Position numbers and translations under genes: made by a program. From positions 58,159 to 122,158 of the IMG/VR virus record IMGVR_UViG_3300000228_000002: DNA of 64,000 bases. One strand, given 5' to 3'. Numbering within the stretch: the first letter of the stretch is position 1; the number at the start of each line of letters is the position of its first letter. The stretch is from a virus. The notes below the pieces were generated by a model. The model did no database searches, was not told the origin of the DNA, and saw only the letters and a program-made list of their open reading frames with translations. Of this stretch, positions 49,952 through 58,874 are shown one piece after another.

Positions 49952-50187
49952 TTTCCCTCCTTGACTAGGGCTTCTTTTAGCTTGTCATAGTAGTCCAAAT
50001 CACCCCTTTTGGCAATTACAGATCCATTGTCCACCAAAAGCGATAATACACTAAGACCGTCTTTACACTTTGCCAATTTGTGGCCAGCTATAATGGCAGC
50101 ACTTCGAATAGTGTATTCTACAGATTTCCTCAGTCGAAGCATGATATCCTGGATTACCCTTGCATGGTATAGTATTTCGATGTTCAT
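49948..50187 (-). CDS. hypothetical protein
   Basis: 79 aa ORF with AAGGGG SD. Confidence 0.55.
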   Translation of the reverse strand: MNIEILYHARVIQDIMLRLRKSVEYTIRSAAIIAGHKLAKCKDGLSVLSLLVDNGSVIAKRGDLDYYDKLKEALVKEGK

Positions 50188-50316
50188 AGATACCCCTTTT
50201 ACACAGTATACAATCCACTATATTTTTCATATTATCTTTTTCATAAATGCTATAGTGTTTATTCTAGGTAAATACAGTAGCCTAAATTTGTTAATTAAAC
50301 TCTATAGGAGAGATTT

Positions 50317-51024
50317 ATGATTGATTTAAAAAGATCACATTCGGACATGAGACTTTCTCGTGCTCTTGCTGCTGGTACAGTAGTTGAGCAAGAAGGTGTA
50401 CTTCTTTGCGCAGTTCTTGAAGATGGTGTTGAAAAAGCCACTATCGTAGCAACTGTTGCTGGTACTGAAAAAGTTATTGGTTTTTCAATGACTGGCGATA
50501 GCCAACCATCTCAGACTTCTAACGTTGAAAGCGTTAAAGTTCCTGCTTCTGGTTCGTACGTTGCTCAGCTTTCAAAGACAAACCTTATTGCTGGTAAAGC
50601 TCGTTTCGTAGCTAACGGTACTGCACTTACTATCATCACTATTGGTGCTCCAGCTGCTGGCGAAGTTCTTGTAAACCTTTCTACAGGCGCTCTTACTTTC
50701 AATGCTGCTCAAGCAGGTGCTACTGTTGTTGCAACATACATCTACGAGCTTACTCTTTCTCAGTCGAAAGCTGCTTTCGGTCAACGTCACATCAACAACG
50801 GCGGGTTGCATGCAGAATTCGGTCAAGTTGAAGTTCAAGCTGGTCACGGCGAACTTTACACAGACCAGTTCAATGCTGCTGCTGACTATTCTACTAACCC
50901 AGCTCTTACGCTTGGTGACAATGGAATCGTTACAGTTGGTGGTGCAGGTGTTGCTCTTAATGCATCAGTTGTGCACGTTCCAAATGCTGAGAATCCACTT
51001 CTTGGTATTCGTTTCCACTTCTAA
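50317..51024 (+). CDS. head decoration/structural protein
   Basis: Strong SD, strongly biased codons, Ala/Gly/Thr-rich, own terminator. Confidence 0.65.
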   Translation: MIDLKRSHSDMRLSRALAAGTVVEQEGVLLCAVLEDGVEKATIVATVAGTEKVIGFSMTGDSQPSQTSNVESVKVPASGSYVAQLSKTNLIAGKARFVANGTALTIITIGAPAAGEVLVNLSTGALTFNAAQAGATVVATYIYELTLSQSKAAFGQRHINNGGLHAEFGQVEVQAGHGELYTDQFNAAADYSTNPALTLGDNGIVTVGGAGVALNASVVHVPNAENPLLGIRFHF

Positions 51025-51051
51025 TCATTACGTCCCAGACAATATGATGAA

Positions 51052-51079
51052 AGAAAGACCTCCTTCGGGAGGTCTTTCT
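51052..51079 (+). terminator. intrinsic terminator
   Basis: AGAAAGACCTCC-TTCG-GGAGGTCTTTCT. Confidence 0.85.
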
Positions 51080-51127
51080 GTATGTGGATGGGTCTTAATT
51101 TGTCTAAAAGACTCAATGAGAGGCACC

Positions 51128-51832
51128 ATGGAACCAGACTACTTAGTCCGCAAAGATAAAATGGGTACATACCTAGTGACCAAGTGGGAAGGTGGTGCAC
51201 AACCAACTGCTATCTATACTGTTACAGACACCAACAGAGGCATGACGTGTAATTGCCCTGGTTCGTACAGAGACAAAAACTGCAAACATATACAATTAGT
51301 CAAAGAACATATTAAAAATCCTGACAAGACAATGTCAAAAGTCATAACATCTGCTATGATAGGCTTGGTAGTAGAGTCAGCTATGGTTAGCAAATTTCAA
51401 AAAGAACTCGTCAAGCATTTAAGTCAATACAACCCTCAAATAGTTGAGGACTTGCACGTAACACTGGCCCTGATCCCACAAGCCCAAACTCACCAACTTG
51501 ATGAAGCTGTTAAGGATGTAGCTACGTTTGAACCAGAATTTAGGACTCTTGAATTAGAGTTACTTCCTGGGAAAGACTTTGATTATCTAGTATTCAAGTT
51601 GATGCCAGACAGTCATTTCAAAGAGTTGACTGATCTCTTGAAACTCACAGTCGATGCAAAAATAAGACCCGATTTCGTTCCACACGTCTCAATAATGAAG
51701 TTCTCACACGGTAATTTCGACGAAATTCTAGAGAAAGTTCACTCTATCAGAGTTCCAAGCTTCCATTTAGTACCCACCAGTGTTGGTGTCTGGAATTCCT
51801 CTTTCAACATGTTCAAAGAATCCAGAATCTAG
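51128..51832 (+). CDS. SWIM zinc finger fused to a 2H phosphoesterase
   Basis: TCNCP.....CKH; LHVTL and PHVSI (two HxT/S motifs). Confidence 0.8.
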   Translation: MEPDYLVRKDKMGTYLVTKWEGGAQPTAIYTVTDTNRGMTCNCPGSYRDKNCKHIQLVKEHIKNPDKTMSKVITSAMIGLVVESAMVSKFQKELVKHLSQYNPQIVEDLHVTLALIPQAQTHQLDEAVKDVATFEPEFRTLELELLPGKDFDYLVFKLMPDSHFKELTDLLKLTVDAKIRPDFVPHVSIMKFSHGNFDEILEKVHSIRVPSFHLVPTSVGVWNSSFNMFKESRI

Positions 51833-51877
51833 GTATAAAATCTAGTATGGATGATCGACATATCTTAAGGCTGGCCA

Positions 51878-54433
51878 GTGTTTCCAACTTTGAACGTAAG
51901 AGGCATATTCGGAACCATACCTGATACACCGATAAAAGTTCAGGAAGGATTATGCGTAGCTACCAGACACCTAGGAAGAAATGGCTCCCTTCTGTCTGAA
52001 ATAGCTAGCACTATACAGGTAGCTAAGGTACCCCACGTGATTGAAAAAGACATAAGCTTCGTGTGTGGGATACGTAAGAGACTTGAAGATGGGAAATGCA
52101 ACAGTAGAAACTACTCGCAAGGTGAGAGAGTCCATGGCATAGACGGTATTTCACCTTGCCTCTCGGCTCAGATGGGTGGTACTGCTAACGGTAGTGTGTT
52201 AATAGTTGAGGGGATAGACAATATGAAAGAGCTTTCAATGAAGCCAATTAAAAGACCACCCATGGTGGAGAAGTTAAAGAAAAAGCTTAGAGCTATGCCA
52301 GAGGTAAATCTGGTTGACATGGGTATCCCATTCGGTAACAACCAACCGACCTCAAAGTTGAAAGACATTCTCGAAACCAATGTTGAACCCAAATATTATC
52401 TCCGCAAGGAAATCGTCGAGAAAATCGTTAAAGAATCGGGTTTTGAGGAAAGATTGGTAAGTCTCAAGACACCTTACAATAGAGATGAGCCTAAGATGGG
52501 TTCAGATATTTCGTACTGTCTCGATGCCACTTATGTTAAGGGTACCAATACTACTATGAAGTCCAATAGGCAACTGGTAGGAGAAGGTAATCCGGAAATT
52601 GTCACATTGAATGAACCCAAGCATTCAAATAACAAAATTTACTCAGAGGATGGGATATCACCAACACTTACCACTATGGGCGGTAGAAATAGACAACCAT
52701 CCATTTATGAGGATCAAACTACTGTTGCCTATTCTAAGTCAACAAGAGATACTCACGTAGATCACCGAGGTAAAGTTGATGGAGAAGCCAACACTATTTC
52801 TACTGGTGACGGTGGAGGCAACCAAAGTACTCAAAACTTCGTGGTTCAATACAACCGTAAAGATGAAGTAGGGAAAGAGCTTGAAGTTAGTCATACTCTC
52901 AACAGTTCCGATTGGAGAGGCATCAACAGAAACCAAGATCAAAGTGCCGTTCTAGAGTGTCTCACACCAAATGCCAAATATAAGAGCGAAAACGTCTACT
53001 CTGATGAAGGTATTGGACCATGTTTACAAGCTCACCAAGGTGGTACTGCAGGCAAAAGTGCATTGACTACTAACGTGAGTGAACCTTACCGAATTAGAAA
53101 ACTCACCCCTAGGGAGTGTGAAAAACTACAGGGTTATCCAGATGTTCTGCACAAAATTACCTTTAGCCTATGTTCAGACCAAGTAAAGAACTATGTAAAT
53201 GTGGTAAGCAAAAATCCCAGGTTGCAAAGATTTGTAGAGAATGTCGAGTTACAAGAATTACGAAAACTTGTTCATGTGGCAAAAAATTCACTACCACACC
53301 ATCACAAAACTACGTTTCATGTAGTTGAGAATGCCAATACCGAAGCCACACAGGTGGAGTTCAGAAGACAAAGCTCAGAATTGAATGGAACTGTAGACAG
53401 TGTGGTAGCCTCAATTCTACTAGACCATCAAAAGTTAGGGGAAAATTTTGTAACGGAAAGTGTAGTGGCAAGTATCACAGAGGAGCAAATAACACTTCAT
53501 GGAAAGGTGGGATATCGCCACTCAGGGATGTGTATTTCTCCAAACCTCAATGGAGAATCCTTACAGGATATATTAGAAAAAGAGATGGGTTCTCATGTGT
53601 TAAGTGTGGTAGGAAATGCCACGGTAAGAGGGAAAGCCACATCCATCATATCAAACCATTTAAATACACACTTTTTGTATTCAAGCCTAGCAACCTTGTA
53701 CTATTATGCAGAAGCTGCCATGAATGGATTCACTCAACAGGAAACAATGCCAAAGAGTATATCATTGACGATGGAATATACTAGTGGTCACACGGTTTAT
53801 GGTCGTCGTGAGAATGGTGAAGTATATGAGATGACCAACACCCAGAGGTACAGACAATGTGGTAATGGTGTATCATCACCTGTTCCGGCGTATATACTTT
53901 CTAAGCTCATCCCAAAAGATGAACAAATAGAATTATTCTCATTGTTCTCAGGTATTGGTGGTACGGAGCTTGATTTGGATAAAGAGCAATTCAAAACTGT
54001 TGCACTCTGTGAGTGGGATAAGTTTGCCTCGGACGTGTTAAGATATCACCACCCAGAAACCATAAACTTTGGCGACGTAACCAAGGTTCTCGAACGTAGA
54101 GCAGAAGTACCAAGATGTAACATGGTAGCAGGTGGTTTTCCGTGTCAGGCATGGTCATCAGCTGGTCTTAGACAGGGTTTCGACGATGCCCGTGGCCGTG
54201 GGGATATGGTTTTCCGTATGTTCAAGATTATCCAGGAACTGAAGCCAAAATATGTGTTATGTGAGAACGTTAAAGGGCTAATGACCTTTGATGGTGGAAA
54301 TGCTTTCATTGAAATATGTAAGTCTCTATCTGAACTTGGATATGAGTTCGATTTCGAAATACTCAACTCCAAAAATTTCGGGTTGGCCCAAAACCGTGAG
54401 AGAATGTTTCTATTTGGCAGACTGAAGACTTAA
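51878..54433 (+). CDS. circularly permuted, multi-TRD C5-cytosine DNA methyltransferase with internal insertion
   Basis: Order TRDs, IX (RKLTPRECEKLQGYPD), X (YRQCGNGV), I (LFSGIGG), IV (GGFPCQ), VI (ENVKG), VIII (QNRER). Confidence 0.92.
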   Translation: MFPTLNVRGIFGTIPDTPIKVQEGLCVATRHLGRNGSLLSEIASTIQVAKVPHVIEKDISFVCGIRKRLEDGKCNSRNYSQGERVHGIDGISPCLSAQMGGTANGSVLIVEGIDNMKELSMKPIKRPPMVEKLKKKLRAMPEVNLVDMGIPFGNNQPTSKLKDILETNVEPKYYLRKEIVEKIVKESGFEERLVSLKTPYNRDEPKMGSDISYCLDATYVKGTNTTMKSNRQLVGEGNPEIVTLNEPKHSNNKIYSEDGISPTLTTMGGRNRQPSIYEDQTTVAYSKSTRDTHVDHRGKVDGEANTISTGDGGGNQSTQNFVVQYNRKDEVGKELEVSHTLNSSDWRGINRNQDQSAVLECLTPNAKYKSENVYSDEGIGPCLQAHQGGTAGKSALTTNVSEPYRIRKLTPRECEKLQGYPDVLHKITFSLCSDQVKNYVNVVSKNPRLQRFVENVELQELRKLVHVAKNSLPHHHKTTFHVVENANTEATQVEFRRQSSELNGTVDSVVASILLDHQKLGENFVTESVVASITEEQITLHGKVGYRHSGMCISPNLNGESLQDILEKEMGSHVLSVVGNATVRGKATSIISNHLNTHFLYSSLATLYYYAEAAMNGFTQQETMPKSISLTMEYTSGHTVYGRRENGEVYEMTNTQRYRQCGNGVSSPVPAYILSKLIPKDEQIELFSLFSGIGGTELDLDKEQFKTVALCEWDKFASDVLRYHHPETINFGDVTKVLERRAEVPRCNMVAGGFPCQAWSSAGLRQGFDDARGRGDMVFRMFKIIQELKPKYVLCENVKGLMTFDGGNAFIEICKSLSELGYEFDFEILNSKNFGLAQNRERMFLFGRLKT
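53170..53784 (+). pseudogene. Zn-finger/HNH endonuclease nested in the -1 frame of the MTase, with one internal TGA
   Basis: MFRPSKELCKCGK...CS*EC...WKGG...RDGFSCVKCG..HIHHIKP..NLVLLCRSCH; TGA at 53326-53328. Confidence 0.85.
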
Positions 54434-54793
54434 TACGATTTGTCTTCGTTGATCTTCACTGAAATATGAGAAGTCTCTGATTTCCTCTATTTCGGATAGG
54501 TTCAACCATAAAGTCTTACCAAGTTCCTTGGCATACTTCCACAGTGGCATAGAGGCTTTTTCTAGGTTGATATCACCAACGAAATTACCATTATTGTCTC
54601 TTGGGTAACATTCATCGAAGTTGGCTTTAATGCAGTCGAAGAATGATATAGAGTCATCCGTTTTCACCAGAGTGCAATTAGCCAAATTCTCAGGCTTGCC
54701 TAGGTCATACGACTTATCTAGGTCCCAACATCCGTAATTGAACTTCTTGAACTTCACAGGTGATTCTAAATTCCGTTTCGTTTCCCAGTGCAT
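54410..54793 (-). CDS. hypothetical protein
   Basis: GGAGG SD before ATG 54793. Confidence 0.6.
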   Translation of the reverse strand: MHWETKRNLESPVKFKKFNYGCWDLDKSYDLGKPENLANCTLVKTDDSISFFDCIKANFDECYPRDNNGNFVGDINLEKASMPLWKYAKELGKTLWLNLSEIEEIRDFSYFSEDQRRQIVLSLQSAK

Positions 54794-54877
54794 ATAGCCT
54801 CCGATTTCGGATATTTTAACACATAGTATTAGGTTTCCACAAGTTATGTTAAAGGAGTTGACAACAAAGGGAAGAAA

Positions 54878-55567
54878 ATGTCTAAAGAATTGACACTTGA
54901 AATAATGAGAAAGGCTAGGATTGTTAATCCCACAACTGCACAGGTGATCAACTTCATCGTCACTGCCAATCTTTCTCAAGCTGAGAGAAAGGACTTCGAA
55001 AAGCTAGCAGCAAAACTCAACCCTGATATAGAGAAACCGTTCCTCAAGATAGACGACGTTGAGAAAGCATTTGCAGAATCCGAAATACGATACCCGTATG
55101 ATTTCTCCAGGATATCAATGTACCTCAAGGATCTAGCAGACGAGCTGGATCAGAGAAAAAGTATAAGTGGATACGAAAATACTATCAAACTCATCCCCGT
55201 AGAATACCTAAATAAATGGGATCTCCCAAACTTGATCGGAAAGCTACTCTCCCAAAACTTTTGGGAACCTAGAGTTAAAGCTATGTCCAACAAGGTGAAC
55301 AAGGGGTACTTCACTGATAGAACTGGTATTTCTATTGCCGAATTGCCAGAGCTCGGTACTTCCTTCGTAACATACGACGAAGCTCGTAAAGCATATGACG
55401 AAGCAAAAAGCGATGAAGAGAAAGTCCTAGCATTGAAACATATGATTTCCCAGATGGGTGGCAACAATACTGACTATTTGAAGGGAGTGAATAACTTCAA
55501 TGTTCAAGAGCAGTTGAAGTCGCTAACCGAGATGTGGGAATTCTTGAAGTTTACAGCAGGTTACTAG
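54878..55567 (+). CDS. hypothetical protein (possible internal head protein)
   Basis: 229 aa ORF with TTA/VTA motifs near the N-terminus. Confidence 0.6.
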   Translation: MSKELTLEIMRKARIVNPTTAQVINFIVTANLSQAERKDFEKLAAKLNPDIEKPFLKIDDVEKAFAESEIRYPYDFSRISMYLKDLADELDQRKSISGYENTIKLIPVEYLNKWDLPNLIGKLLSQNFWEPRVKAMSNKVNKGYFTDRTGISIAELPELGTSFVTYDEARKAYDEAKSDEEKVLALKHMISQMGGNNTDYLKGVNNFNVQEQLKSLTEMWEFLKFTAGY

Positions 55568-55593
55568 TAGTTCTAACATAGCTATTTTTAAGA

Positions 55594-57555
55594 ATGGCTT
55601 TCACAAGAGATTACAAGACAAACTTCAAATTTGTAGAACAGTCTAACCAGACTTACTATCACGACATAAGAGTCTTCATCATGGGTGTTGACGTTTCCCC
55701 ATGGCTGATGTCCGATGTGGCAATTACTTATTCGAAGAATGGTGGTATAAATTCTGCGTCATTCACTTTATCCAATCAATACAATGCATTTGTATTAACT
55801 GAGGCAAACCTTATTGGCAATGGCGGTAAAGGAACATGGAGATTGCAGAACCCATATTCCCCTGAGGGCCAGTACTCGGAGCAAGCCAAACACGCAATGT
55901 GGACTCTAAAGAATTCCGACGGTAGAAATGTTGCGCATAGAGTGAGCTCCTTCGGACCTATAAAAGGTAGTGGGCATAGTAAGGCTTCGGTTCTAGAGGT
56001 TGGTAAGAATGCCTCTCAGGCACAATCGTCCGTTACACATAGATACCCGTTTGCTCCAGGAAGCCTAGCAATACACAAATTCGACCATGTTCGGATCTTT
56101 GCTAAGAACCCCCTGACTATGACAAACGAGTGGATGTGTGTCTTTTCTGGTTTTGTAGATTTGAAGCCTTTCAATGAAGACTTAGTCTATGGTATGAGCT
56201 CAATCAAGGTTTCATGTCAGGATATCAGATATGCTATGCAAAGAATGCGCACACAAGCCAATCCAGCAGCATCAATTGGTAATGAGAATGCTTTACAGTT
56301 TTCTAACGGTGGACCTGTAGAGAATAACCCCGATGCCGGGTATTTTAACGATTTAGTAGGTCCCAACTCCATGACCAGCCACGTGCTAGGTGGGGTAACT
56401 TTCCTTGGTACTATTACTTTCCTGTTGCTAGGCGAAACCCCTATTCGAAGTGCCGATTCTACTGCAGGGGAAATATCAGTAGGGAATAGTGACACTACCA
56501 ACGTTAAAAAAGCCTTAAATCAGGTAGGTGAACTAGAACTAGGGGAATCAATAACTTTCGACCCTAGTGCAGCAAATAAAAACCAGATCTTAGAAGAATG
56601 GAATGATTTGGTTCTCTTCCGAGAGTTTGGCATGATGACTGAAGCAGAAATGATTCGGATTGGTCAAGAAACTCACGAATGGGGTCTTTATTCCATATGG
56701 AAAGCAAAAGTTCATATTTTGAGACCAGCCGATGGATTACCAACATCCAACTTGGTGGAAGCATCTATAACGGCAGGGAGGATCGGGGATAAGATTCAGT
56801 GGTCCTCAAGACTTGAACTTCTCCTTGATATATGTGATAACATAGACTATGTATTCTACGTTTCGCCTTGGGGAGACATAATATTTGAGTTCCCTATGTG
56901 GGATTTTTCACCTAAGGACTATGGTTCTAGGTATGAGGAAGTATATAAATTTGTAAACCACATTGTGTCTAGGGACATAAATGATGAGGGTGGCGAAGCG
57001 ATATCAGCATTGACAGTAGAGTCGAGCCAGTTACAGGCCGAGACTAAACCATCTGATGAGACACCCAACAACATTAACGGTTACGCTTCTAATAGAGAAT
57101 TAACTAGAACTATCTTCTCCAATGCACTAGCATCTAGAATTGGAGTACAAGTAAAAACTGTAGTGAAGCCTGGTATTATTAATCAGGATTTGTTGGCACA
57201 GTATGGTCTTATAGAATTTGCCAAGGCTACTGCGGATTACAATAAACACTCCTTCAGAGCTCAGTATAGACCATTTCTTATGTTGAATCGACCAGTCTAT
57301 GACATCGATGCATATAAGATAGGGACTCTAAATAATATGACGACGACATGGAGATTGCGCGAGTCAGTTGATATTGACTTGGATCTGAACTATGTTAGAA
57401 GAGGTGAGATAGGTTCTGAAGGAAACGTCGTCTTCAGATTTATCACCGGTGGGGAAGCCTCTACTATATCTTACAACAAGATCTACACTGATAGGTCTCT
57501 TGGTGGAACAGGAGTAGGCGATACTGGCAATAAAGCCAAAGAGGGCGAAGAATGA
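55594..57555 (+). CDS. baseplate hub-like tail protein
   Basis: IRVFI.GVDVS, ASFTL, FSGFV, SCQD, FYVSPWGDIIFEFP pattern; precedes the spike-like gene. Confidence 0.6.
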   Translation: MAFTRDYKTNFKFVEQSNQTYYHDIRVFIMGVDVSPWLMSDVAITYSKNGGINSASFTLSNQYNAFVLTEANLIGNGGKGTWRLQNPYSPEGQYSEQAKHAMWTLKNSDGRNVAHRVSSFGPIKGSGHSKASVLEVGKNASQAQSSVTHRYPFAPGSLAIHKFDHVRIFAKNPLTMTNEWMCVFSGFVDLKPFNEDLVYGMSSIKVSCQDIRYAMQRMRTQANPAASIGNENALQFSNGGPVENNPDAGYFNDLVGPNSMTSHVLGGVTFLGTITFLLLGETPIRSADSTAGEISVGNSDTTNVKKALNQVGELELGESITFDPSAANKNQILEEWNDLVLFREFGMMTEAEMIRIGQETHEWGLYSIWKAKVHILRPADGLPTSNLVEASITAGRIGDKIQWSSRLELLLDICDNIDYVFYVSPWGDIIFEFPMWDFSPKDYGSRYEEVYKFVNHIVSRDINDEGGEAISALTVESSQLQAETKPSDETPNNINGYASNRELTRTIFSNALASRIGVQVKTVVKPGIINQDLLAQYGLIEFAKATADYNKHSFRAQYRPFLMLNRPVYDIDAYKIGTLNNMTTTWRLRESVDIDLDLNYVRRGEIGSEGNVVFRFITGGEASTISYNKIYTDRSLGGTGVGDTGNKAKEGEE

Positions 57556-58874
57556 AATGGGTTCAGGAGCTTTATCAAGCCGGAAAACAAGAACAATCCA
57601 ATAAACAGGGTCGGGTTCTTCCATATTCTTCATACGTAGACTCTGTTTCTTCAGATACAGAAAAAGCAATCATAAGGAACTGGGCTACCAAGGGTAGAGA
57701 ACTTAGCATATCTCACCCATTCATCTCATCGGGTGCTTGGATTAGAGCACTACCTGAAGAGGGTGCTCAATACATGACTACCAACAGGGCTGATGAATCA
57801 GAACCACAATTGCTCTCTACCATCTCTAAGGGTACGGAAGTAAGGGTACAAGCCTACAGAGACAAAGTGGGTGTTTTCAGGGTTCTATCACCTGGAGAGA
57901 TTGAGATATCATCAAGAGGACTGTCACAAGCATTCTATTCTTCAAGAGCATTCTCATCCACTAGAGCTGGCAATCTCCTAAGGACTATGAATCAGGATGA
58001 ACTGTCCGTCATGGAAAGATCGCCTATTCAACTCAAACAGTTTCTCAACTACAAAGTAGGAGAATTGGGTGACGAACACAGAGTGGGAATTGTTAGCAGA
58101 TATATGAATTCCTGGAAGACCATATTTCCAAAACTGAATGAAAAGTACATGGCTGAAGAATACTTCAGTATGACTAACCCAGCTTTATCTGCTCCAAACA
58201 TTTTGTTCACTATTCAGAGAGGACATGTTACTGACAAACTTGGTGTACCTGTTAACCATAACAAAACCCAATTGCCACTCAGGATGTCTCAAAAATATTA
58301 TGCCAACGATGATACTGCAACATCCTTCGAAATTGATCAGTCTGGAAACTACTTGATCAAGCTAGCCCAGGCCGCTACCGAAGGTATGTATGTGGAAGTT
58401 CCAAACGGAAATTTCCGTTCCGTGGTTGAAAAAGACACCAATTGGACGGTTAATGGAAACTGGTCTCTACTTCTCAAGGGTACAAGATCGGAAGATATAC
58501 AAGGTGCCAAAAAGGTTCTAGTAACCAAAGCTTACTCCCTCAAAGCAGACAGTATAACAGAAGAGTCTGCCAAAGCATATTCGGTAAAAACACAAAGCTA
58601 CAAGATGACAGCAAGTGCTACGTATGATATAACTGCTACTGGCCCAGCCAAAGTGATGTCACAAGCTAAAGCAGAGTTCATAGGAACTGCCGGAACTGAT
58701 GTTGGTAGTCCAGCCAGTATTACAAATGTTAATGGTACTCTAGTTAATTTAGGTACTAACACACCAGCAGTCGGGGTAGCTAGGCTTGGTGATATGAGTG
58801 TTGGTATTGGGAACCTTGGTTTTCCTACAATTAGCACTATTATAACTGCTAGCCCTAAAGTAACCAGTGTATGA
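57552..58874 (+). CDS. baseplate spike (gp5/gpV-like)
   Basis: N-terminal WIRALPEEG, beta-helix-like repeats, C-terminal VARLGD...I..ASPKV. Confidence 0.7.
   Translation: MKWVQELYQAGKQEQSNKQGRVLPYSSYVDSVSSDTEKAIIRNWATKGRELSISHPFISSGAWIRALPEEGAQYMTTNRADESEPQLLSTISKGTEVRVQAYRDKVGVFRVLSPGEIEISSRGLSQAFYSSRAFSSTRAGNLLRTMNQDELSVMERSPIQLKQFLNYKVGELGDEHRVGIVSRYMNSWKTIFPKLNEKYMAEEYFSMTNPALSAPNILFTIQRGHVTDKLGVPVNHNKTQLPLRMSQKYYANDDTATSFEIDQSGNYLIKLAQAATEGMYVEVPNGNFRSVVEKDTNWTVNGNWSLLLKGTRSEDIQGAKKVLVTKAYSLKADSITEESAKAYSVKTQSYKMTASATYDITATGPAKVMSQAKAEFIGTAGTDVGSPASITNVNGTLVNLGTNTPAVGVARLGDMSVGIGNLGFPTISTIITASPKVTSV

Follow-up and report, generated by a model that had tools for sequence, protein, structure and literature searches.

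A gene for a C5 DNA methyltransferase that holds a second gene within it was found in a 64,000-nucleotide stretch of viral DNA (positions 58,159 to 122,158 of IMG/VR virus record IMGVR_UViG_3300000228_000002), which is called the window below and which belongs to a 122-kb record rated about 49% complete. The inner gene, for an HNH homing endonuclease, lies in the -1 frame of an insertion cassette at 53144-53785, between motifs IX and X of the methyltransferase. It is likely that this cassette is a hidden-HNH homing element of the ShiLan-domain kind (Arsenault, Gosselin & Gogarten, Genes 2025, PMC11855218), which is not spliced but translated through as a 214-aa loop of an 851-aa methyltransferase. 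The features of the locus are as follows.

51878..54433, + strand: the host gene, a C5 DNA methyltransferase of 851 aa in a single open reading frame (ORF), matched by PF00145.
53144..53785, + strand: the insertion cassette, 642 nucleotides (nt) or 214 host-frame codons with zero host-frame stops, between motifs IX and X, delimited by the family alignment and absent at exactly that point in homologues.
53170..53784, + strand: the HNH homing-endonuclease gene in the -1 frame, 204 codons plus TAG, with one internal nonsense codon, matched by PF01844.
53326..53328, + strand: the in-frame TGA at HNH codon 53, seen in the ORF list and in contigs.
53596..53733, + strand: the HNH catalytic and zinc-binding motif region, HNH residues 143-188, the PF01844 stretch with invariant His, Asn and Cys columns.
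53144..53173, + strand: the putative N-terminal clamp strand in the host frame, residues 423-432, a strand predicted by AlphaFold2 and nearly all within the 26-nt leader before the HNH start codon.
53756..53785, + strand: the putative C-terminal clamp strand in the host frame, residues 627-636, a strand predicted by AlphaFold2 that overlaps the poorly conserved HNH tail and stop codon.
53786..54433, + strand: the downstream part of the host, motif X and then motifs I-VIII, about 215 aa and the whole catalytic domain, assigned by profile, alignment and superposition on M.HhaI.

In Pfam, PF00145 matched the whole 851-aa ORF with an expect value (E) of 4.3e-60. Profile positions 230-294, the motif IX region, fell at 52847-53155 and positions 3-164, motifs I-VIII, at 53933-54430 of the same open frame. 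The host is circularly permuted, and its order runs from three repeats resembling target recognition domains (TRDs) through motif IX, the insert and motif X to motifs I-VIII. In this permuted order the defining elements of a C5 methyltransferase were found, namely motifs I, IV (PCQ), VI (ENV), VIII, IX and X together with the fold of an AdoMet-dependent methyltransferase. Residues 684-851 of the AlphaFold2 model superposed on residues 1-174 of M.HhaI with a Z of 17.2 and a root-mean-square deviation of 2.6 over 171 aligned residues. The three TRD-like repeats are contained in the N-terminal 400 residues, which showed 30-40% identity to the multispecific methyltransferases of Bacillus phages SPR, SPbeta and H2. 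The host looks like a circularly permuted phage C5 methyltransferase of the multispecific type. M.BssHII is a circularly permuted C5 methyltransferase too, and it resembles the host part of the window gene, as do the SPR, SPbeta and H2 enzymes, in having motifs IX-X before motifs I-VIII and several TRD repeats; we know of no report of the cassette in any of these enzymes. Since motif X and motifs I-VIII all lie 3' of the insert, the downstream catalytic domain of the window enzyme would be obtainable only via read-through. A nucleotide search of phage records returned no match for the gene.

The original prediction, made from the letters of this DNA alone, had placed at 53144-53785 a 642-nt open insert with a -1-frame HNH gene and a TGA at 53326, and the independent delimitation by family alignment arrived at the same coordinates. 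Two ORFs, 53170..53328 (52 aa, ending at the TGA) and 53530..53784, share one frame, and this frame is open over 53170-53784 save for that one TGA. The HNH codons start one base before the host codons; the leader measures 26 nt, and the TAG at 53782-53784 stands 1 nt before the end of the insert. In Pfam the -1 frame matched PF01844 with an E of 1.7e-7. The beta-beta-alpha-metal motif of this family is present with its His, its Asn and its zinc-binding Cys pairs, in an ORF that is cut by the TGA at codon 53. Phage HNH endonucleases are about 30% identical to the window HNH frame, and intact members of its own family are 43-54% identical to it over the full length. For the host-frame peptide of the insert, no Pfam match was obtained.

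Aligned with four intact relatives, the TGA occupies a column that varies among R, S and K and lies between two conserved Cys residues. Across 13 family loci, no other internal stop was seen in the HNH gene. A recent point mutation would have this appearance. Because of the nonsense codon, the window copy of the HNH gene is probably inactivated and no longer mobile. Decoding of TGA by an alternative genetic code was ruled out, as TGA ends 19 of 90 long ORFs and ORFs of at least 150 aa called with table 11 cover 85% of the genome. Logan contigs from two runs on different samples were identical over 52700-54300, TGA included, which argues against a one-off assembly error, both runs being possible sources of the record and hence not independent. 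Low-depth contigs of two further runs showed ten substitutions, of which five were synonymous in the HNH frame, four were synonymous in the host frame and one altered both, too few to be informative.

The boundaries of the insert were fixed by alignment to uninterrupted homologues, the check that had been suggested with the original prediction. P0002, P0004 and P0005 (612-666 aa) are the same permuted enzyme and lack the segment at exactly this point, as does the ORF of L003 in the alignment; L007, a partial relative from the metagenome scan, also has an empty site. P0003 (810 aa) and P0006 (507 aa) have the insert at the same point, where it is likewise read through in the host frame, and P0001, P0003 and P0006 are insert-bearing at one shared point. 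The permutation is common to P0002-P0006 and to the 333-aa ORF in L003. Exon identity was 90% between P0001 (insert) and P0002 (no insert), 88% between P0003 (insert) and P0004 and P0005 (no insert), and 76% between P0001 and P0003, both insert-bearing. Since the exon identities do not track the presence of the insert, they suggest at least two gains or losses, which fits homing. A search with the whole protein sees read-through forms only and cannot by itself show that the frame is always open.

Two further observations concern these relatives. In L003 (3010-5640) a 90-aa ORF matches the middle of the window methyltransferase, and four small hydrophobic-looking ORFs separate it from the 333-aa methyltransferase ORF, which is permuted and free of the insert. 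Other C5 methyltransferases of the group (e.g. P0008, P0017 and P0029; 3 of 95 tested hosts) bear true inteins with Hint_2, Intein_splicing and LAGLIDADG_3 matches, so several kinds of selfish element invade these host genes.

For counting host-frame stops, loci were located via the HNH protein and not via the read-through protein, which keeps out any gene-calling bias. Among viral contigs and species-representative genomes this gave 13 distinct loci including the window, with ten viral contigs, one Bacteroidetes metagenome-assembled genome (MAG) and one Saccharibacteria MAG. In every one of them, the host frame, which begins one base later than that of the HNH, is free of stops over the HNH gene and stays open on either side, running on into a C5 methyltransferase whose motif IX lies directly upstream; the third frame contains 15-33 stops. 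The GC content of these loci ranges from 33% to 55%, and the insert is 214-220 aa long in the 11 loci measured. A scan with C-terminal HNH motifs found 80 loci with 70 unique HNH proteins and added 10 C5-type loci on further viral contigs. In total, 23 of 23 nested loci have no host-frame stop, with the same cassette, site and relative frame throughout.

The 70 unique HNH proteins also include relatives outside this arrangement. The host-equivalent frame had no stop in 21 of them: 19 with a motif-X-like signature downstream, L148, whose host fragment was unassigned, and L169, which is in an N6/N4 methylase. The other 49 had 1-20 stops (5-20 in 46 of them and exactly one in three). HNH relatives outside the nested arrangement carried stops in that frame in 49 of 50 cases, and the stop-free frame goes with the nested arrangement rather than with the HNH family in general. 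As a background, 115 non-overlapping stretches of 205 codons were taken from other long ORFs of the genome; in the same relative frame they had a mean of 12.2 stops and a minimum of 4, never 0. When the window HNH protein was recoded with the codon usage of the genome, 7 of 5000 trials had no stop, and within-gene synonymous shuffling of the window gene gave none in 3 of 2000. That selection keeps the host frame readable had been proposed at the outset, with a search for related out-of-frame HNH genes and a count of their stops as the way to probe it; the unbroken host frame in all 23 nested loci and the stops in 49 of the 50 other relatives bear the proposal out. These data support selection acting against host-frame stops.

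The cassette is common. A profile of 11 host-frame insert peptides was searched against 1.84 billion cluster representatives (clusters at 50% identity), and it matched 435 proteins at E<=1e-3, 348 at E<=1e-10 and 151 at E<=1e-30. The insert was near-complete in 121 of the best 150. Motif IX-like sequence stood just upstream in 104 of the 113 proteins with enough flank and motif X-like sequence downstream in 114 of 120, the tail after the insert measuring 33-82 aa in all but two of those examined. Pfam assigned PF00145 to 89 of the top 95. Since nearly all hosts have the motif IX and X flanks and belong to PF00145, the cassette is, on sequence grounds, specific to the motif IX/X hinge of C5 methyltransferases. 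The hosts almost always have the normal motif order, and the permuted host of the window with its 215 or so post-insert residues is unusual. In a search for split forms, none of 96 shorter proteins had any part of the host-frame insert at E<=10, a result of little weight in either direction, short proteins often being contig-end fragments.

The HNH frame was better conserved than the host frame over the insert. Identity to the window was 43-54% for the HNH frame versus 22-30% for the host frame, and the mean pairwise HNH identity within the family was 53%. In the interior of the host-frame peptide, the blocks that are conserved lie over conserved motifs of the HNH, and an invariant host-frame Cys at insert position 10 is a codon forced by the overlapping HNH ATG. 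At the C-terminal end of the insert in 111 family proteins, positions -9, -7 and -5 before the Gly of the resuming exon were hydrophobic in 82%, 98% and 99%, respectively, and the intervening positions in 13-17%. At the N-terminal end, positions -5, -4, -3 and -1 before the invariant Cys were hydrophobic in 61-85% of the family proteins and position -2 in 9%. The HNH tail is poorly conserved at the C-terminal end, and the N-terminal end lies upstream of the HNH start and is not HNH-coding. Where the HNH gene imposes little or no constraint, a beta-strand pattern has been kept at the host-frame ends. The third codon positions of the HNH gene were 0.50 identical versus 0.33 in a methyltransferase control, a difference that either host-frame constraint or a younger element could produce and that was not used as evidence.

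Structure prediction agreed with this pattern. The ends KITFSL and SISLTM of the insert had been noted as strand-like from the letters alone, and AlphaFold2 predicted beta strands there in the window protein, at residues 423-432 (predicted local distance difference test (pLDDT) of the block 72/64) and 627-636 (57/77). In P0241, a host with normal motif order that was modelled from a 95-sequence alignment with a mean pLDDT of 66, strands were predicted at 365-371 and 576-582, and the model matched solved C5 methyltransferases (Foldseek E about 5e-17). The interior of the loop had a pLDDT below 50 in both models and the catalytic core was confident; modelling the host-frame insert, as had been suggested, yielded a low-confidence loop between two strands. 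The helix before the C-terminal strand is conserved. The two end strands may pair with each other.

Upstream of the methyltransferase, the directly adjoining ORF at 51119-51829 had a weak match to a LigT-like 2H phosphoesterase (PF02834, E 1.6e-5), and five other neighbouring ORFs had no Pfam match. In two family loci, tRNA genes lie directly 3' of the insert-bearing methyltransferase (L097, 3744-3889; L091, 4578-4671). The family HNH also gave tblastn matches under features annotated as "site-specific DNA-methyltransferase" in Escherichia phage BUCT618 (36821-37372) and as "histone-lysine N-methyltransferase" in Bacillus phage Sophrita (162693-163160), which may be further hidden or mis-annotated HNH genes.

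A mechanism for such an element can be proposed. The endonuclease encoded in the -1 frame, starting at its own ATG, would drive the copying of the cassette into empty methyltransferase alleles, with the DNA encoding the motif IX/X hinge as its target. The cassette would be spliced from neither the RNA nor the protein. Being divisible by three in length and free of host-frame stops through its codon choice, the cassette would let the ribosome read straight through to an 851-aa enzyme, which would stay active. The loop thus added to the enzyme would be mostly fast-evolving and probably disordered, and at its base two short amphipathic beta strands would bring motifs IX and X back together. In the window, where the catalytic domain is downstream of the cassette, read-through would be indispensable. 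Going beyond this, the cassette may have evolved to replace splicing by a solution in the structure of the protein: an old and widespread HNH lineage would have specialised on the IX/X hinge, its other frame encoding clamp strands that close the loop and so restore the enzyme. We hold this extension tentatively and lean slightly towards doubt.

Several points weigh against an unspliced, translated-through homing cassette. The N-terminus of the window host (GTG start) is shorter than, and unlike, those of P0002, P0004 and P0005, and the window methyltransferase may therefore not be intact. For the window protein AlphaFold2 gave a poor model (mean pLDDT 49.7), in which insert residues 464-598 score below 50. 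The case against splicing consists in the absence of signatures. For some other loci, the within-gene shuffle left the host frame without stops in as many as 388 of 2000 trials. Codon usage is already adapted in these relatives, and single loci are not individually decisive; since single-locus shuffles are often stop-free, the case is carried by the set of loci and the controls. Thirty-seven HNH-frame proteins of the family that had been called as separate genes match the full-length profile, and some of them could sit in broken hosts; among the separately called HNH proteins, the only exact match to the loci was P0223, in L117 and L118, which is of the free-standing type. Finally, in a sister HNH group found in N6/N4 methylases, three of four loci are interrupted by a single host-frame stop close to the HNH gene's 3' end, and read-through is, on this comparison, not universal. 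The HNH of this group belongs to the same family and has another N-terminus, and its gene is placed towards the 5' end of PF01555 N6/N4 methyltransferase genes, which are the host class of ShiLan. In L169 (1956-3976), with a PF01555 host, the host frame is open through the HNH gene, and in L156, L177 and L178 (about 2240-2824) the lone host-frame stop stands at locus position 2778, just before the methylase domain resumes.

The same observations were weighed under other explanations. The segment might be removed by a cryptic or unconventional self-splicing intron, another form of RNA excision, ribosomal bypass or atypical protein splicing, which would give a mature enzyme of about 637 aa. The highly conserved site, as for introns and inteins, and the patchy distribution of the insert would suit such removal, and section 4.4 of the 2025 report also leaves splicing formally open (PMC11855218). 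However, the HNH gene leaves only 26 nt of the insert before it and 1 nt after it, and these 27 nt compare with a ribozyme core of about 200 nt or more that a group I or group II intron needs. Rfam at E<=1 returned nothing for window positions 50000-56000 and only tRNAs, all outside the inserts, for 11 family loci, and RNAalifold predicted 6 pairs with 0 compensatory changes at the 5' junction of 13 loci, hence no conserved or covarying structure. These results do not support a group I/II intron. An intein is not supported either: no Hint or intein family was found in the host-frame peptide, the +1 residue is Gly in 92% of 111 proteins and not Cys, Ser or Thr, and the Cys within the insert is forced by the start codon. 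The absence of intron and intein signatures, asserted in the original prediction, held with Rfam, with Pfam and at the 5' junction. Since none of these mechanisms explains a stop-free host frame in 23 of 23 loci, we regard removal as quite unlikely. An expression route of another sort would be programmed -1 frameshifting, by which the HNH would be made as a fusion to the N-terminal part of the methyltransferase, with its TRDs and motif IX, and would borrow its DNA recognition. The lack of a clear Shine-Dalgarno sequence before the window ATG and the constant -1 frame of the HNH gene speak for it; yet an ATG or GTG is kept at the same place in 13 aligned loci, an HNH-frame stop lies at most 17 codons upstream of the start in 10 of 11 distinct loci (2 codons upstream in the window), and no slippery heptamer was seen by eye in the leader. 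Such a fusion is extremely improbable.

Two explanations concern the methyltransferase itself. The host-frame insert could have been co-opted as a working domain of the enzyme with a regulatory, dimerising or DNA-contacting role, and this function would keep the frame open. That the frame is open although the window HNH is broken would then be expected, as would the conserved end-strand pattern and helix and the presence of the insert in hundreds of clusters. The interior tells otherwise, for its host-frame identity is far below that of the HNH frame, its conserved blocks are those of the HNH motifs, its predicted confidence is below 50 and it belongs to no Pfam family; close homologues, moreover, manage without the insert. 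Co-option is unlikely. Alternatively, the methyltransferase could be dead in insert-bearing phages and the open frame a by-product of HNH codon usage or of recent insertion. Phages can often do without such enzymes, and the shuffle was stop-free in up to 19% of trials for some loci. Against this, the catalytic motifs are intact and the predicted core folds like M.HhaI; the HNH proteins have diverged to the identities given above, yet all loci are open; 49 of 50 relatives outside the arrangement have stops, and recoding gave P=7/5000; and the hydrophobic periodicity at the insert ends is conserved. A dead enzyme is very improbable.

The translated-through homing cassette has a published counterpart. 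In the 2025 report's account of mycobacteriophage methylase gp65, the ShiLan domain is a 202-aa insertion with no host-frame stop, and its hidden HNH lies in the third frame, beginning 18 bp from the 5' boundary and reaching its end in the last four bases (TAAC); the account gives no intron or intein signs, a predicted hairpin-like loop and a patchy distribution, rests on a handful of mycobacteriophage genes and is all computational (PMC11855218). The window element shares with it, as there described, an insertion of about 200 aa at a conserved methylase site without a host-frame stop, an HNH with zinc fingers, the lack of an intron or intein signature, the patchiness and an AlphaFold-predicted hairpin-like loop. 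The HNH start is near the 5' boundary in both (18 bp versus 26 nt) and the stop is in the last bases (TAAC versus TAG plus 1 nt). In both, too, the HNH codons stand one base ahead of the host codons, which we checked on gp65 in NC_041988.1. The proposal of a homing element tolerated by being translated through was supported by the open frames and by the patchy insert among near-identical hosts, but the claim that it may be a new class was not, since the class was published in 2025 as the ShiLan domain (PMC11855218).

The two elements differ in several respects. The host of ShiLan belongs to PF01555 (N6/N4 amino-methyltransferase) and that of the window to PF00145 (C5); the ShiLan HNH belongs to PF13392 (HNH_3) and the window HNH to PF01844; and the motif IX/X hinge is an insertion site other than that of ShiLan. 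The HNH families match remotely (hhalign probability 90%, E 1.5e-6, 22% identity over 121 columns), and tblastn with the family HNH gave no ShiLan-type methylase at E<=0.01 among the 100 of 279 records listed. A nonsense-mutated HNH and a circularly permuted host are peculiar to the window. Because the enzyme class and the insertion site are different and the HNH match is only remote, the window element would be one that works like ShiLan but is a separate lineage. The hidden HNH of ShiLan gp65 was reportedly the subject of an earlier paper, by Gosselin et al. in 2023. Literature searches, which did not cover the repository survey of the 2025 paper that may list C5 cases, found no published description of the C5 form.

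Other systems share part of this design. Phage HNH homing endonucleases are intron-encoded, as in I-HmuI, with a group I ribozyme of at least 200 nt, or free-standing in intergenic DNA. Compared with this type, the window element shares the HNH with zinc-ribbon modules, the presumed conserved coding target and the patchiness, whereas it has no room for a ribozyme and leaves the host frame open. Inteins are likewise inserted in frame at a conserved site and translated with the host; unlike them, the window peptide has neither a Hint fold nor intein blocks, has Gly at +1 and has its nuclease in another frame. Rickettsia palindromic elements are selfish in-frame insertions of about 50 aa that are translated within host proteins, with no nuclease and no second frame. 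Like them, the window element would be tolerated via read-through and extrude from the protein, and it adds the nuclease and the second frame. I-HmuI was used for structural comparison in the 2025 paper (PMC11855218). Section 3.6 of that paper describes in Pacc40 gp60 a second out-of-frame nuclease-like ORF that is read through in a phage methylase (PMC11855218). As presented there, it differs from the window element in its position in a helicase-methylase fusion, its 160-aa ORF and a less certain HNH assignment, and free-standing relatives of the ORF adjoin methylase genes of other phages.

On the usual view, homing elements persist inside genes by splicing themselves out as introns or inteins. 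The 2025 report proposed, in its account of ShiLan, a third way, which is simply being read through (PMC11855218). Our results suggest that this strategy arose or spread in another enzyme class with another HNH family, and that it is common there (435 clusters). The window and its relatives put this strategy on a much broader footing with statistical controls, provide evidence that clamp strands in the second frame are selected, and include a permuted host with a broken nuclease whose catalytic domain would be made only via read-through. Selection on the second frame is measurable, host-frame stops being absent and amphipathic strands being conserved at both ends of the insert. Gene callers take such genes for ordinary long methyltransferases and overlook the nuclease; the converse, an HNH called separately, also occurs. 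The permuted host with its broken HNH is a convenient test case for the tolerance of such a loop. If the strands do clamp the loop shut as proposed, the window would be a natural experiment in which the nuclease is dead and yet clamp and open frame are kept, since the catalytic domain is encoded entirely 3' of the cassette.

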